Shown here: piece by piece, positions 10,488-18,807 of the stretch
Numbering within the stretch: the first letter of the stretch is position 1
How the letters are laid out: each line of letters opens with the position of its first letter
Source: a virus
DNA: 64,000 nt
IMG/VR virus record: IMGVR_UViG_3300001450_000023
Location: 1 to 64,000 of that record
Reading direction: 5' to 3' (one strand)
Notes under the pieces: model-generated
Databases searched by the model: none
The model's input: the letters and a program-made list of their open reading frames with translations, nothing else
What the model was told of the DNA's origin: nothing
Translations under genes and position numbers: made by a program

Positions 10488-11255
10488 ATGTTATTTGGTG
10501 GATATGAAAGTAATGAAAGAAAATCCTCAATACATTTTGGTCTTAATCAAGGTGTAAAATTACAAAAGTTTGAGTATAACCCAAGCATTGAATTTGCTAA
10601 TGGTAATACTGCAGAAGGTGTAGAAATAGAATTCAACGTAAGTGGTTCTGTTGTTAGAAGTAACATTTACCCTCCTACAAAAGTTTATGATGGAGGACAA
10701 GAGATTACAGATCCTACACACAAAGCATTTAAGAAAGCAATTATTGAATTCAAGAAAAGAATTTATCATATTGCTGAATCTTTTATGTCTAGAGAAGCTT
10801 TAATTGAAGCTATTTCTGTTCCTAAACCTTTTGGAGAATTTATGGAATCTATAATAAGTTCTTTTGAAGAAGGATGGCAAGAAAAGCCAATTGACTTGTT
10901 CTTACAATATCAATGGCAGCTAAGAGAAGGAGCAGAAAGAAAATACTTAGAAGTACCAAAGAAAACTTCTCAAGGTCCATTTATTATGCCTGCACTTGCT
11001 GGTGACTGGAAAAAAGTCCTCATTAGTGAAAGTGGTGATGGTTCATTAAATGGAGTTGCTTTTGGTAAACTTAAAGGTAAAACATTTACTACTGACAATG
11101 GTCTTGAAATTATTTTCAAAACTAAAGATACAGGAATGTTTTACATAAATGATGACAATGAAGTTCATCCATTTGTAAGGTCTAGCTGGTTTATGGAAAA
11201 TGGTTGGGCAGCTGCAGATGATGAAGCTGAAAGTACATTAGATAGCTGGGCATAA
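10488..11255 (+). CDS. Putative single-stranded DNA-binding protein
   Basis: Beta-rich N-terminus, acidic aromatic-ending tail (DDEAESTLDSWA), immediately upstream of primase. Confidence 0.5.
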   Translation: MLFGGYESNERKSSIHFGLNQGVKLQKFEYNPSIEFANGNTAEGVEIEFNVSGSVVRSNIYPPTKVYDGGQEITDPTHKAFKKAIIEFKKRIYHIAESFMSREALIEAISVPKPFGEFMESIISSFEEGWQEKPIDLFLQYQWQLREGAERKYLEVPKKTSQGPFIMPALAGDWKKVLISESGDGSLNGVAFGKLKGKTFTTDNGLEIIFKTKDTGMFYINDDNEVHPFVRSSWFMENGWAAADDEAESTLDSWA

Positions 11256-11266
11256 AATCTTATAAT

Positions 11267-12268
11267 ATGTTATATGGAGGATTAAATGGTCTAATATCAC
11301 TAACAAAGAATGAAATATTAAAGAGGATATCTCAGCAAGAGATATTCTCTATTTTGTTTGGTGATATAGATTACAAAAGTAGATATGTAAATCCTATTAG
11401 GAATGATGAAAAGGCAGGATGTTTTTTTTCATGGCATAATGGAATATTATGGTTTTCTGATTTTGCAGACATTAAAGTTAATAGGGATTGCTTTGAGTTA
11501 CTCAAAGATGCTTATAATTTAAATTTTTATGAAACTCTACAATATATAGATGAATATTTTGGATTAGGAATACAAAATGGTAATCCAATAAAACCTAAAA
11601 TTGTAGATAAGATAGTAGTAAAAAAATCTACTAAAAGTAAAACCCTTATAACATATCAAAAAAGAACTTTTGATAGACATCACAAAAAGTACTGGTCTAA
11701 TTATGAAATTACTCAAGAGCAATTACTACAAGACCAAGTATTCCCTACAGTTTATTTTAAAATTCATTCTAGAGCAAAAGATAAATGGGTAACCATAAGA
11801 CCTTTTGCTAATGAAGTAACTTTTACTATAGACCAATGGGGAGGTGATGCTATTAAAATATGCAGAGCATTACACAAAGGAGATATGAAATGGATTACAA
11901 ACTGTACAAAGAATCATATAGGTATTGATAATGGTTTTCAAGGTGAAAATTTAATTATAACTAAATCTTATAAAGATTGGAGAGTTTTAAAAAATCAAAA
12001 TCTATCTGCAATATGGCTACAAAATGAGGGAATGTTTCCTAAACAGGAATTATTAGAATCATTGTGTATGACATATAATAATATATATGTATGGTTTGAT
12101 AATGATGATCCAGGAATTAAAGCAGGAAAAAAGTTAAAAGAAATAATATCTTCTTTTCATGACAATGTAGAACACATTTATTTACCTGATAAAAAGGTTA
12201 AAGATCCTGCTGAGTGTATATTTAAAAATAAAAAACTATTTTACAATTTTATAAAATTATTATTATGA
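11267..12268 (+). CDS. dnaG: DNA primase (TOPRIM)
   Basis: NPIRNDEKAGC (degenerate Zn-finger region), FSDFA, ITKSYKD, WFDNDDPG (DxD), KDPAE. Confidence 0.88.
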   Translation: MLYGGLNGLISLTKNEILKRISQQEIFSILFGDIDYKSRYVNPIRNDEKAGCFFSWHNGILWFSDFADIKVNRDCFELLKDAYNLNFYETLQYIDEYFGLGIQNGNPIKPKIVDKIVVKKSTKSKTLITYQKRTFDRHHKKYWSNYEITQEQLLQDQVFPTVYFKIHSRAKDKWVTIRPFANEVTFTIDQWGGDAIKICRALHKGDMKWITNCTKNHIGIDNGFQGENLIITKSYKDWRVLKNQNLSAIWLQNEGMFPKQELLESLCMTYNNIYVWFDNDDPGIKAGKKLKEIISSFHDNVEHIYLPDKKVKDPAECIFKNKKLFYNFIKLLL

Positions 12269-12891
12269 CAACTAGAAAAGTTAGAATTTTTTCAACAAAA
12301 GTTAAAGCTCAAATAGATACTGATGTAACTAACTGGGGAGATCTAAAAAATATTTTAAGAGACAGACAAATTCCATATAGTGGAATGACTGCAGCTCTAA
12401 GTGGTTCTAATTTATCATTAGAATCTAATGCTGCTCAATTACCTAATACAGATTTTGTTTTGTATCTAATGCCACAGAAAACTAAAAGTGGTATCAATGT
12501 AGAAGCATTTTCTTATATGGATTTAAGACAAACAATTCAAAGCATTATAGAAACTACAGGAGATGTAGCTAAGAATTTTTTTAATGATGAATTGAATTAC
12601 ACTAGAAAAAATGCATCTCAATTAAGAGTTTTATTGCAAGAATGGAATAAACAAGTTCCTGTAGCAAGTCAAGAAAATGTTGAGTTGACAAACCTTATTG
12701 CAAATTTAAAATCTTTAGAAACCAAACATCAACATTTAGTTGATCAAGCAATAGTATTACTCGAAAGAGTAATGCATGCTTGGGATGATGAAGAAGAAAT
12801 AGAAGCAGAATTTGAAAAATTAAATTCTGAATTTAATCCACCTGAATGTGAAGATTTTCGTGAAGAAGCATCTTCAGAAGATTATTTTTAA
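12265..12891 (+). CDS. Ubiquitin-like (beta-grasp) protein precursor: Ubl residues 1-76 ending KTKSG plus C-terminal helical domain
   Basis: Pattern RKVRIFST / AQIDTD / TNWGDLKNIL / MTAAL / QLP / DFVLYLMP-QKTKSG; adjacent to E2-like, JAB and E1 genes. Confidence 0.7.
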   Translation: MTTRKVRIFSTKVKAQIDTDVTNWGDLKNILRDRQIPYSGMTAALSGSNLSLESNAAQLPNTDFVLYLMPQKTKSGINVEAFSYMDLRQTIQSIIETTGDVAKNFFNDELNYTRKNASQLRVLLQEWNKQVPVASQENVELTNLIANLKSLETKHQHLVDQAIVLLERVMHAWDDEEEIEAEFEKLNSEFNPPECEDFREEASSEDYF

Positions 12892-12893
12892 AC

Positions 12894-12917
12894 AAAGGCT
12901 CTTAATTGAGCCTTTTT
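12894..12917 (+). terminator. Intercistronic hairpin / attenuating terminator after the Ubl gene
   Basis: aaaggctc-ttaatt-gagccttt plus additional T. Confidence 0.6.
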
Positions 12918-12929
12918 AAATTTTATATT

Positions 12930-14129
12930 ATGACAGAAGAATTTGTTAAAGATATACTTGAACTTAAAAGACAAGAGTTTGAGAAACAAGACATGTTAAG
13001 TAAAAATAATTATTCACCACCAATTTATGAAGTAATTAGTAAAAAATATCATTCTTCTTTGTCAAATATAATAGAAGTATTTGATGAAGTATTTGGTAGA
13101 GAATATTGGGATATGCAAGTAGAACCTAGAGCTTATCATAATTTAGGTGGTAATAGTGTCTATAACAAAGAATTAAATGTAGTTGTCCGTTTTCCTGAAT
13201 TAACAGTAACTAATGAAAATGAAAGATCTATTTTATTAGAAAATTTCTTTTTAAGATTAGTTTTTAATGGTAGAAGAACATATAATTTAGAAACTTCAGA
13301 TTATACATATTTCTTTGATATGAGAGCAAATCTAGAAGGTAAATTAAATACTCCTAGTGCTCAACAATTATATAAAGATTATCACCATAGCCATATTCAT
13401 AGTAGTGCTGATAGAATAAATTTTCAATCATTTTGTACAGGTAGAAATTTCTTTTCAGACCTTTATAGAGGATATAATAATGACCCTTGTAAAGAAAATT
13501 TATTCATGTTAGCTAAATATATGATTAATATGGCTAGTACAGAATCACTAGCTGGTGTTCCTTATATAAAGATGGACACAGTATTATTTACTGACCATAG
13601 TAGAACTCTTGATGAATCAGTATTTCATAATTTAAATCAATATGTAAAATATTTGAAAATAAAACCTGTTGATTGGACATTTAAAAATGGTTTTTTAAGC
13701 ATTGTAGATAATGAAAAGTTTGAAAGAAATCTATATGAATTAGTTATGAACTCAATAGATGAATTAAACATGGAAGAAACTAATACTACTTGGTTAATTA
13801 ATAATATTAAATGTAGAAAAGACAATTTAGGTAACTATTATTCAATAAGACAAGATTTTGATAATGATTACATACAAACTTATATAAGAGATCAGAATAC
13901 AAATAATACTTTTTATTTTAAAGGCAGTAAGTTTCCAATCTCTTTGAGTAAAGAAACATTTATTAATGAAGATAATTTTTATTTAAATCAAAAAATTAAA
14001 AAGCATGCAAAACAATATATTGAAAGACAAATTAATGAAAAAAAGCTTACCTCTTATTTCAAATCAAGAAGTAATAGAAGTAAGATTGAACAAGACAATA
14101 ATGTCAAAAATAAAATACTTGTGCAATAA
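12930..14129 (+). CDS. Prokaryotic E2 (UBC-like) conjugating enzyme candidate
   Basis: YHHSHI...FQSFCTG resembles the E2 HP(N/H)...C signature (Cys codon 13434-13436); lies between Ubl and JAB/E1; ATG 12930 preferred over TTG 12906. Confidence 0.55.
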   Translation: MTEEFVKDILELKRQEFEKQDMLSKNNYSPPIYEVISKKYHSSLSNIIEVFDEVFGREYWDMQVEPRAYHNLGGNSVYNKELNVVVRFPELTVTNENERSILLENFFLRLVFNGRRTYNLETSDYTYFFDMRANLEGKLNTPSAQQLYKDYHHSHIHSSADRINFQSFCTGRNFFSDLYRGYNNDPCKENLFMLAKYMINMASTESLAGVPYIKMDTVLFTDHSRTLDESVFHNLNQYVKYLKIKPVDWTFKNGFLSIVDNEKFERNLYELVMNSIDELNMEETNTTWLINNIKCRKDNLGNYYSIRQDFDNDYIQTYIRDQNTNNTFYFKGSKFPISLSKETFINEDNFYLNQKIKKHAKQYIERQINEKKLTSYFKSRSNRSKIEQDNNVKNKILVQ

Positions 14130-15027
14130 AATTTCACAGGTTGAATGGTCAGGAGTATTATTTTACTCCTTGAAAGGCAATATAAAAAATCCTTCTAAGA
14201 TGGTTTGTGTAATAGAAGATATTCTACCTATGGATATGGGTTCAGCAGCATATACTGAATACTCATTTGATGATAGAGTAGTTACTTTTTTGCAAGAAGA
14301 AGAGGAGAGATTTGATTGGCATATAGGTCACATACATTCTCACAATAATATGAAAACATTTTTTTCAGGAACTGATATGTCAGAATTAAATGACAATTCT
14401 GAAAATCACAATTTCTATTTATCTCTTATTGTGAATAATGCAATGGATCTTACAGCTAAGGTAGCTCAAAGAATCAAGTTAAAAGATATTTCATTTCTTG
14501 CTAATGATAGAGATGGCAATACATATTCTAAGAAACTAGCTAATGATAAAGAAGTTCTTATGATATATGATTGTAACATTAAAATCCCTAAAAGTGAATT
14601 GTTAGAAAACTCTTTCATAAGATCTGTTGATAAAATAATCAAAGATAATGAAGAGGCTAACAAGAAAATGAAATCTAATAATAATTTAGCATGGGATTTT
14701 AATGAAAATGTAGATTTAGAATTTGATTTTACAGATGATATAGAGATTGAGAATGCACTTGTGTATTGCTTAAGAAAAGGAGTAACTTTTAGAGATGATA
14801 CATTAGAAGATTGTCTTGATGACATTTTTGAATTTAAAAACTGGGATGATTATGATGATATTGAATATTATTTGAAAAGATATTGTTTGAAAACAAGCAA
14901 TCTTTATAATTCAACTGATTATGATAAATTGTTAAATCAAATGATTTATAAATTAAATGAATTTGTAATTGTATATCCAGAAATTAAAAACATTTTAAAA
15001 CATTTTAAACATGAGTCAGAGATTTGA
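14035..15027 (+). CDS. JAB/MPN+ metallo-isopeptidase (deubiquitinase-like)
   Basis: EWSGVLFY...GHIHSHNNMKTFFSGTD gives the full E-HxH-x7-S-xx-D JAMM motif; start either 14005 or 14035. Confidence 0.88.
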   Translation: MKKSLPLISNQEVIEVRLNKTIMSKIKYLCNKISQVEWSGVLFYSLKGNIKNPSKMVCVIEDILPMDMGSAAYTEYSFDDRVVTFLQEEEERFDWHIGHIHSHNNMKTFFSGTDMSELNDNSENHNFYLSLIVNNAMDLTAKVAQRIKLKDISFLANDRDGNTYSKKLANDKEVLMIYDCNIKIPKSELLENSFIRSVDKIIKDNEEANKKMKSNNNLAWDFNENVDLEFDFTDDIEIENALVYCLRKGVTFRDDTLEDCLDDIFEFKNWDDYDDIEYYLKRYCLKTSNLYNSTDYDKLLNQMIYKLNEFVIVYPEIKNILKHFKHESEI

Positions 15028-15706
15028 TAGATTTAAAGATGCAGAATGGTTTGGTGATAGAACTGTTCTTATAGGTGGGTGTGGTGGAATAGGCTCTTGG
15101 TTGAGTCTATTTCTATCTAGGGCAGGATTTACTCAAGTTATATATGATGATGACAAAGTAGAAGAACATAATATTGGTGGACAACTGTATGGTATCAAAA
15201 ATGTTGGTAAAACAAAAGTAGATTCTATGGTTGAAATTATTCATCAGTTTACTGGAGATAATAAAGTGCATGTGTTTTGTGAGAGAATGGATAAAACATC
15301 TCCTACTAATAATTATGTATTTTCTGCTTTTGATAATATGAAAGCTAGAAAAGAGTTATTTCACAACTGGCTTGAGTCACATGGTAAGAGTAATGATGCT
15401 ATATTTATAGATGGTAGATTAGCAGCAGAAAGTTTGCAAGTATATACTGTAAAAGGAAATGATTCTGATTCTATTAAAAATTATGGAGAATCTCTTTTTG
15501 ATGATTCTGAAGTAGAAGAAGAACCATGTACTTTGAAGCAAACTACTCATATGGCTGCAATGATAGCATCTATAATGACAGGTTTTTTTACAAATTATAT
15601 TGTTAATGTGAATGAAAAGGAAGAAGTTAGACAAGTACCTAACTTTCATTCTTATTATTTACCAAACCATTATTACAATGCAATCAATAGCACAAATTTT
15701 AAGTAA
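15011..15706 (+). CDS. ThiF/MoeB/E1-like adenylating enzyme
   Basis: RFDRF arginine finger, GCGGIG, YDDDKVEEHNIGGQ, GKTKV, AFDNMKAR, IDGR, candidate catalytic Cys in EEPCT. Confidence 0.92.
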   Translation: MSQRFDRFKDAEWFGDRTVLIGGCGGIGSWLSLFLSRAGFTQVIYDDDKVEEHNIGGQLYGIKNVGKTKVDSMVEIIHQFTGDNKVHVFCERMDKTSPTNNYVFSAFDNMKARKELFHNWLESHGKSNDAIFIDGRLAAESLQVYTVKGNDSDSIKNYGESLFDDSEVEEEPCTLKQTTHMAAMIASIMTGFFTNYIVNVNEKEEVRQVPNFHSYYLPNHYYNAINSTNFK

Positions 15707-16277
15707 TTTTGTAGAACCAAGATACTATGGAGATATATATAGCATTTCAAGAGTAAATATTTATGGATGTTCTTTTACTTCCAAGTTTATTCCTGTATTT
15801 GCAATGTTTAAAAGTTCAGGTAGTTTATTCTTGGAAGGTAAAGAAATTATTTATCATCATTTATATGCAGATAACAGAGAACCTCTTAAAAAGTCTTACA
15901 ATATTATGTATAGTACTTTTTGTTATGGTATGAAAGCTAAATCATATAGAAATAAAGATGGTATAATTTTAATTAGAAAAGGTCTTGTTACAGATGAAAA
16001 TTTTAATATTAAGATGGTTTTATGTTTTAAAGATTTTAAAAACATAGACAAGAATAATGTAACTATTAAAGACTTTATCTTAATTGTTAACAAACAGTAT
16101 TTTAATTCTTTATTGTTTAAAAATTTTAATAAAAAAAACTGTTTTGAAGATATAGATATGTTGTTAACAGATAATGTAGAGGAGTATTGTTTTAAATCTC
16201 CTAAAATTATTCCTAAATTTAAAGATATTGCTATAATGCAAGAATATTTAAATGATGTAAATAAATTATTATTATGA
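15678..16277 (+). CDS. Hypothetical protein (possible fifth gene of the Ubl module)
   Basis: Overlaps the E1 3' end and is coupled (ATGA) to the resolvase; start 15678 or 15612. Confidence 0.65.
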   Translation: MQSIAQILSNFVEPRYYGDIYSISRVNIYGCSFTSKFIPVFAMFKSSGSLFLEGKEIIYHHLYADNREPLKKSYNIMYSTFCYGMKAKSYRNKDGIILIRKGLVTDENFNIKMVLCFKDFKNIDKNNVTIKDFILIVNKQYFNSLLFKNFNKKNCFEDIDMLLTDNVEEYCFKSPKIIPKFKDIAIMQEYLNDVNKLLL

Positions 16278-18357: not shown

Positions 18358-18807
18358 ATGAAAGCTATTAATAAAAGTACATGTTTAAAACAAGAAATAA
18401 AAATTTCTGTAGATAAATTTGATAATGAAAATAATATTATCAATTCTTCAGAAGATATTTGTGATTATTTTAGAAATATCATTCCTGTAGATATTAATAC
18501 ACAGGAATGTTTTATTATTATTTATTTAGATAAGAAAAGTGATGTTATAGGTTATAATGTAAATTCAATAGGTGGAATTGATCAATCAATTGTTGATGTA
18601 AGATTAATTTTTGCTGTTGCATTAAAATGTTTAGCAAGTGCTATAATATGTATTCACAATCATCCATCAGGTAATTTAAAACCTAGTAAAAGTGATGTTC
18701 AAGTAGAAAAACAAATTAAGAAAATTGCTGATTATCATAGCATTTCTTGTCTTGATTTTTTAATTGTAACAGAAAATGGGGATTACTCTTTTGAAGCAAA
18801 TAAATAA
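18358..18807 (+). CDS. radC: RadC-like JAB domain protein
   Basis: QECFIIIYLD...GGIDQSIVDVRLIF..AL...ASAIICIHNHPSGNLKPSKSD...LDFLIV. Confidence 0.9.
   Translation: MKAINKSTCLKQEIKISVDKFDNENNIINSSEDICDYFRNIIPVDINTQECFIIIYLDKKSDVIGYNVNSIGGIDQSIVDVRLIFAVALKCLASAIICIHNHPSGNLKPSKSDVQVEKQIKKIADYHSISCLDFLIVTENGDYSFEANK

Follow-up and report, generated by a model that had tools for sequence, protein, structure and literature searches.

A phage-encoded ubiquitin-like fusion protein with an invariant internal glycine: a candidate precursor for the JAB peptidase of its own gene cassette

Here, we explored a gene for a ubiquitin-like protein (Ubl) fused to a C-terminal extension, located in a 64,000-nucleotide stretch of virus DNA (positions 1 to 64,000 of the IMG/VR record IMGVR_UViG_3300001450_000023; hereafter, the window). 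The complete record comprises 79.8 kb, and the closest named relatives of the source virus are the FpV4-type Flavobacterium psychrophilum phages. The gene is an open reading frame (ORF) of the plus strand (12265-12891) encoding 208 amino acids, and comparison with its relatives lends good support to the view that the product is a precursor, which the JAB peptidase of the same gene cassette probably cleaves after Gly76. JAB cleavage is the best reading because it rests on an invariant glycine, a variable extension behind it, a naturally split form of the gene and a fixed gene neighborhood.

Counted from the ATG at 12265, which overlaps the stop codon of the upstream primase gene (ATGA), the codon of Gly76 occupies positions 12490-12492 and is followed by 132 residues; both the coordinates and the residue count given by the initial annotation, which was made from the sequence alone and placed this glycine at the end of the Ubl fold, are correct. 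The sequence context of the glycine is ...DFVLYLMPQKTKSG/INVEAFSYMDLRQTI..., with the slash at the junction, alternatively rendered as ...DFVLYLMPQKTKSG/INVEAFSYMDLR.... The AlphaFold2 (AF2) model of the 208-residue protein, built from a 13-row alignment with a mean predicted local distance difference test (pLDDT) score of 68, contains strands at residues 4-10, 14-19, 41-45 and 64-70 and a helix at residues 24-33, that is, the strand-strand-helix-strand-strand order of the beta-grasp, and drops to pLDDT values below 50 at residues 72-79. When residues 1-75 were compared with 48,161 PDB chains using VIA-align, ubiquitin, UBX, UBL, FAT10, ISG15 and MoaD structures were matched with Z scores of 6.8-8.1 and root-mean-square deviations of 2.0-2.8 Å over 65-72 aligned residues, and all 50 matches listed were beta-grasp domains, mostly of the ubiquitin, UBL and UBX type; Foldseek assigned a probability of about 1 to ubiquitin, SUMO and NEDD8. 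In its predicted structure, residues 1-75 thus have the beta-grasp fold that is expected of a ubiquitin-like modifier, and the glycine, although internal in the gene product, sits at the end of this fold.

A profile search of 1.84 billion representative sequences retrieved 1047 family members at E ≤ 0.001, and conservation was measured in a MAFFT alignment of 152 sequences (the best 150 of the 1047 and two close relatives, representing clusters at 50% identity or less). All 152 keep Gly76, 151 have Ser or Ala at position 75, 146 have Lys74 and 124 have Thr73; the column entropies at positions 72-76 are 1.2, 0.96, 0.32, 0.81 and 0.0 bits, respectively, and climb to 2.5-3.3 bits at positions 77-81. 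So sharp a conservation of the glycine, with the drop right behind it, is far more than chance would produce. In a separate alignment of 58 sequences with a mean column identity of 18%, the only invariant columns are Gly76 and Thr113. The actual number 76, to which the initial annotation attached weight as the exact position of the terminal glycine of ubiquitin, is a coincidence of the window copy, because the glycine sits at positions 74-103 in relatives, most commonly at 75. The tail of ubiquitin is R72-L-R74-G-G76, and K72-T-K74-S-G76 of the phage protein shows the same basic-x-basic-small-Gly pattern, a likeness of pattern and not homology. We propose that this tail motif is both the JAB cleavage site and the E1 activation site.

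The expectation that the K-x-K-x-G motif would be kept while the extension varies was borne out by the alignment: among relatives, the extension differs in both length and sequence, and some lineages carry an extension of another kind. The glycine is separated from the next conserved residue by 1-17 residues of freely varying sequence, and among the best 150 of the 1047 family members, the profile matches mostly cover the Ubl and a helical core, stopping around position 128-140. The AF2 model places helices beyond the linker at residues 84-98, 100-106, 117-130, 136-150, 156-172 and 176-190. The part of the extension up to residue 130 (residues 77-130) is conserved as a core and about neutral, and the tail at residues 131-208 carries a net charge of -16 (family median, -8.5). 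About half of the relatives (in the set P0017-P0165) end in a motif of the F-x-D-V-[KR] type, i.e., (E/D)-F-x-D-V-(K/R). Other C-termini carry an acidic run and a terminal aromatic residue, recalling the acidic, aromatic-ended tails of proteins of the single-stranded DNA-binding protein (SSB) type. A scan of IMG/VR loci with a 20-sequence alignment further identified at least 8 loci in which the Ubl and the ...LYLMPxKTKSG segment are kept, the match ends at residue 76-82, and an unrelated extension of 70-90 residues follows, which is either acidic and helical or rich in lysine and alanine.

The description of the extension as helical with an acidic tail therefore agrees with the model and with the charge; its description as HeH/SAP-like and possibly DNA-binding found no profile support, and the core is about neutral. 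No SAP, HeH, Rho_N or other Pfam match was detected in the extensions of the window protein, 58 relatives and 8 crAss-like copies, and an ESM Atlas search with residues 80-208 gave no usable match. Partial SAP matches in 3 of the 58 relatives were not accepted as evidence for a DNA-binding extension, since all of them lie at residues 25-46, which correspond to the Ubl helix. These matches (in P0054, P0062 and P0050, equivalent to window positions 12334-12399) cover profile positions 8-27 of 37 with a best E value of 5.4e-6, and are probably a local look-alike formed by the helix and loop of the beta-grasp.

The family extends to crAss-like phages. Full-length matches to the window E1 at 35-38% identity come from crAss001, DAC15, PhiCrAssBcn isolates and uncultured Crassvirales, and crAss001 shows the gene order of the window: primase (Gp80), Gp79, Gp78, Gp77 (annotated as a metalloprotease), Gp76 (annotated as ThiF) and Gp75. 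Gp79 is a homolog of the window Ubl fusion (hhalign probability 97.5%, E = 5.8e-12) that reads ...APEKKIKSG/AMSRAEAY... at the junction, and the Ser-Gly is kept in all crAss-like copies read. In the uncultured phage cr106_1 (MT774378.1, 43376-44579, corresponding to locus L038:1722-2925), the Ubl-fusion gene is interrupted by a gene for a free-standing HNH homing endonuclease (L038:2002-2517), and the break point lies two codons past the invariant glycine. The first ORF (92 amino acids) ends in ...KKIKSGKF followed by a stop codon, and the HNH ORF begins two bases past this stop. The second ORF, which begins 15 bases past the HNH stop, opens with the first residues of the extension. Rfam detected no intron around the insertion, and restoration of the fusion by splicing was rejected on these grounds, with the proviso that an intron outside the Rfam models is possible. 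The two separate ORFs of cr106_1 therefore indicate that the Ubl and the extension can be encoded as separate proteins; the two extra residues (KF) on the first of them would still need trimming.

The genes around the fusion are held in a fixed order. Wherever one of the 34 IMG/VR loci extends sufficiently far downstream, a conserved 255-residue protein is followed by the primase, the Ubl fusion, a protein of 320-420 residues, the JAB peptidase, the E1, a protein of about 220 residues, a RusA-like resolvase and an exonuclease VIII-like protein; the order of gp53-gp49 in FpV4 is identical to that of the window cassette. The statement that a JAB neighbors the Ubl gene accordingly holds, with an E1 always downstream. 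The JAMM motif (E...HSH-x7-S-xx-D) is intact, with E47, H111-S-H113, S121 and D124 present in 20 of 20 sequences, and a PDB sequence search with the JAB family returned nothing significant. The E1 has a single adenylation domain in which GGxGGI, D108, R113 and C173, and with them the nucleotide-binding residues, are invariant among 17 sequences, and a PDB sequence search with it gave weak matches only, to TcdA, PaaA and MccB. By their intact motifs, both enzymes, which are encoded by separate, overlapping ORFs, look active. The presence of the E1 in all loci that reach far enough is what would be expected of a ubiquitin-like modifier with its cognate enzyme.

The gene between the Ubl fusion and the JAB encodes a protein of 407 residues with no sequence-level match in Pfam, PHROG, PADLOC or a PDB sequence search, and no clear Foldseek match to its AF2 model. 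Nine residues (Y159, H161, S162, H163, F176, C177, G179, E213 and S214) are invariant among 18 diverged homologs. VIA-align matched residues 41-215 to the UEV domain of Tsg101 (Z 5.7), to other UEV and RWD domains, to a chain of the Citrobacter BubCD-BubB-BubA complex (Z 5.0) and to Ubc9, UBE2J2 and Ubc13 (Z 4.3-4.7), all top matches belonging to the UBC superfold. The His...Cys pair follows a four-strand sheet, where E2s carry HPN...Cys. With moderate confidence, the protein can be considered E2-like.

An E1 needs a substrate with a free C-terminal carboxylate; because the only conserved candidate, Gly76, is internal, a peptidase would have to expose it. Co-folding of JAB residues 11-220 with Ubl residues 1-100 and zinc, in which runs agreed in at least 67% of contacts with a partner pLDDT of at least 72, gave a score of 0.39 against 0.00 for the best control and provides weak support. 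Of 80 solved complexes, 58 reach the mark used, as do 2 of 110 mismatched pairs; at scores of 0.60 or under, however, only 7 of those 80 complexes reach it, together with both of the passing mismatches. Furthermore, since JAB-Ubl complexes have already been solved, the pass may reflect likeness to them.

The route of cleavage, activation and conjugation that we infer, together with any role of the released extension, would be the following. A ubiquitin-like modifier encoded by the phage would be made as the 208-residue pro-form, its flexible basic tail being K-T-K-S-G. Encoded two genes downstream, the JAB would cut the peptide bond after Gly76 to give two products: the Ubl (about 8.5 kDa), now with a free glycine at its C-terminus, and an acidic helical protein of 132 residues. 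The small ThiF-type E1 would then adenylate Gly76, and the E2-like protein would receive the Ubl at Cys177, probably by way of Cys173 in the E1, for transfer onto targets. Tentatively, the extension could be a second working protein made 1:1 with the Ubl, much like the ribosomal proteins fused to eukaryotic ubiquitin, its core and C-terminal motif docking on a replication or host protein, so that JAB cleavage there would deliver the Ubl to a nearby target; this elaboration has a low probability, well below that of the cleavage itself. If true, it would amount to a virus-run tagging system with a substrate adaptor encoded in the precursor of the tag, common to Flavobacterium phages and the abundant crAss-like phages of the gut.

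Several observations weigh against this scheme. No relative ends exactly at the glycine among the family members listed (the best 150 of 1047) or the IMG/VR loci, and a search among proteins of 30-89 residues, of limited sensitivity and with the 90-113-residue range outside it, found no standalone Ubl ending at the glycine. The split form is seen in 1 of 52 close relatives, in an uncultured genome whose viability is assumed. The assignment of the E2 rests on modest fold scores (Z 4.3-5.7). A separate catalytic-cysteine domain, present in the E1s of Bil and of eukaryotes, is missing from the phage E1. Finally, because the extension has a conserved core (residues 84-130) and a C-terminal motif, which may be a docking motif, it is not a mere pro-peptide and could work while attached.

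The last point leads to the alternative that the protein is never cleaved. Here, a built-in Ubl domain, as in UBX- and UBL-domain proteins, would dock a helical effector on the E1, the JAB, the E2-like protein or replication proteins, and K-T-K-S-G would serve as a binding or hinge motif. All family members listed are indeed fusions, save the split cr106_1 copy (92 residues) and a match of 99 residues, and none ends at the glycine; the extension has a core and a C-terminal motif of its own, and the gene is located between primase and recombination genes. However, a hinge function does not call for a glycine that is invariant, and preceded by Ser or Ala, in over 150 diverged lineages, with the sequence varying freely right behind it; some lineages swap the extension for unrelated sequence while the Ubl and the enzymes stay; cr106_1 encodes the two halves apart; and an E1 and an apparently active JAB would be left without a substrate. 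We consider an uncleaved protein unlikely.

An improbable alternative gives the Ubl the role of a ThiS/MoaD-type sulfur carrier, in which case the JAB would trim the protein, the ThiF-like E1 would adenylate Gly76, and a thiocarboxylate would donate sulfur to a nucleotide or cofactor, with no protein being tagged. The small E1 is of the ThiF/MoeB type and carries a thiamine biosynthesis annotation in databases, the fold matches of the Ubl include a MoaD structure, and sets of JAB, Ubl and E1 occur in sulfur pathways (PMC1779556). Yet the tail ends in [S/A]-G and not in the Gly-Gly of ThiS and MoaD, none of the ten neighboring proteins scanned matches a Pfam sulfur-transfer family, a conserved neighbor combines a UBC-like fold with an invariant His...Cys pair, and the fold matches of the Ubl are mostly to ubiquitin, UBL and UBX structures. 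Cleavage by another enzyme, either the 407-residue protein acting as a cysteine peptidase (it has invariant His161, His163, Cys177 and Glu213, and its E2 assignment is at the fold level only) or a host protease, is highly improbable, given that the top matches to residues 41-215 all belong to the UBC superfold and that JABs are the proven Ubl-maturing peptidases of Bil and Bub (PMC10557695, PMC11601596).

The proposed cleavage by the cassette JAB has close counterparts. BilC cuts BilA, as well as an artificial BilA-GFP fusion, after Gly97 (PMC10557695), the JAB domain of BubCD cuts the BubAB Ubl-E2 fusion right after Gly229 (PMC11601596), and JAB cleavage at a conserved Ubl glycine was proposed for the lambda protein TAPI in 2006 by Iyer et al. 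(PMC1779556). The type I Bub system (BubAB, BubCD, BubE; Ye et al. 2024, PMC11601596) resembles the phage cassette in that a Ubl is fused to a second protein, the JAB of the operon cuts after a conserved glycine, and the E1 has no separate catalytic-cysteine domain. However, the fusion partner in Bub is the E2, whereas in the phage it is a helical acidic segment and the UBC-like protein is encoded by the next, separate gene; the Bub JAB is fused to the E1, whereas the E2-like protein, JAB and E1 of the phage are separate genes; Bub employs a DUF6527 serine protease and serine oxyester catalysis, whereas the phage E1 and E2-like protein each keep an invariant cysteine; and Bub is located on the bacterial chromosome, the window cassette in a phage. 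No Pfam match to DUF6527 (BubE) was found for the fifth gene of the block or its neighbors, a result that a distant relative could still escape.

Bil (BilABCD; PMC10557695; Hor et al., bioRxiv 10.1101/2023.09.04.556158) has separate genes for a Ubl, an E2, a JAB and an E1 in one operon; the phage cassette has the Ubl, JAB and E1 of this set, and its putative E2 is recognized at the fold level and by the invariant HSH...C. By contrast, BilA has one residue past the glycine and the phage Ubl has 132, and the BilD E1 contains tandem adenylation domains and a catalytic-cysteine domain, whereas the phage E1 is a single domain of 231 residues. Furthermore, Bil is a bacterial defense system that tags a phage tail protein, whereas the window cassette belongs to the phage replication module, between the primase and RusA/exonuclease genes in all loci. 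No match of the cassette to Bil was found at the sequence level. TAPI of lambda and T1, with the JAB of protein K (Iyer et al. 2006, PMC1779556), is likewise a phage Ubl with a conserved terminal glycine, a linker and a small C-terminal domain, for which a JAB cut has been predicted, but it belongs to a tail-assembly module without E1 or E2, whereas the window cassette is part of the replication module and has both; this likeness is one of description and does not imply homology. The eukaryotic ubiquitin precursors (ubiquitin-ribosomal protein fusions and polyubiquitin) likewise contain a roughly 76-residue beta-grasp whose tail follows the basic-x-basic-small-Gly pattern, and cleavage has to expose their glycine. 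They differ in that sequence homology to the phage protein is not detectable, the phage tail has a single Gly after Ser/Ala, a JAB is proposed as the phage peptidase, and the two fusion partners are unrelated. In its proposed mode of action, the cassette resembles Bil and Bub, but it belongs to neither.

Table 1. Features of the Ubl-fusion gene and the genes that follow it (positions in the window)
Feature	Positions	Strand	Basis or remark
Ubiquitin-like beta-grasp domain, residues 1-76	12265..12492	+	AF2, Foldseek, VIA-align; ends in invariant Gly76
Tail motif P70-Q-K72-T-K74-S75-G76	12472..12492	+	Family consensus P-x-K-T-K-[S/A]-G
Hypervariable linker, residues 77-83	12493..12513	+	Entropy 2.4-3.3 bits; low pLDDT
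Conserved helical core, residues 84-130 (SYxELRxxI...NYTxK...LRxLL)	12514..12654	+	AF2 helices, profile matches
Variable acidic helical tail, residues 131-208, with aromatic/acidic C-terminal end, and stop codon	12655..12891	+	Charge, C-terminal motif
Terminator-like hairpin, 8-pair stem then T-run	12894..12915	+	Directly 3' of the Ubl-fusion stop codon
E2-like protein (moderate confidence), 407 residues	12930..14129	+	Listed ORF from TTG 12906; ATG 12930 is the invariant Met of homologs
JAB/JAMM metallopeptidase	14005..15027	+	Pfam Prok-JAB E = 0.0024; PADLOC JAB E = 6.3e-8
Small ThiF-type E1, 231 residues	15011..15706	+	Pfam ThiF E = 1.5e-19, one match, residues 18-217
Fifth conserved gene of the block, 221 residues as listed	15612..16277	+	Present in related loci; no Pfam, PHROG or PADLOC match

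Some further features of the region deserve mention (Table 1). The hairpin behind the fusion gene may set the level of the tag precursor above that of the downstream enzymes. The true start of the JAB is probably later than 14005, and that of the fifth gene probably lies near 15678, not at 15612. The fifth gene product has no conserved cysteine, and its counterparts in FpV4 and locus L023 are 362-410 residues long. Upstream, the 255-residue protein (10488-11255, phrog_15339) precedes the primase in 33 of the 34 related IMG/VR loci and in FpV4. A second gene with a JAB fold, RadC-like (18358-18807; Pfam RadC E = 1.2e-33), lies 2.6 kb downstream of the E1, past the end of the region compared among the related loci. 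Beyond the FpV4-type and crAss-like phages, jumbo Xanthomonas phages (locus L042; Ep026, OQ603353.1, 63893-76447) encode an E1 that is 31% identical to that of the window, and no member of the Ubl-fusion family was found within 6 kb on either side of the E1 of Ep026. A scan of 185,579 cellular species genomes, made with one pattern of limited sensitivity, found no copy of the cassette.

We found no description of this phage cassette in the literature searched, from which subscription journals were mostly absent, and the main text of two central crAss papers mentions neither ubiquitin nor ThiF. To our knowledge, ubiquitin-like tagging in bacteria has so far been known as anti-phage defense, in Bil, in type II CBASS and probably in Bub. 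Here, the full set of a tag precursor, an E2-like protein, a JAB and an E1 belongs to a phage, and by analogy, a maturation route already proven in bacterial systems would be placed in a virus. It forms a constant element of the replication module throughout a large lineage, among whose members are the FpV4-type Flavobacterium phages and, from the gut, cultured crAss-like phages such as crAss001 and DAC15. Whether these viruses tag proteins can be approached through a precise and cheap handle, namely the invariant glycine together with the extension fused to it.

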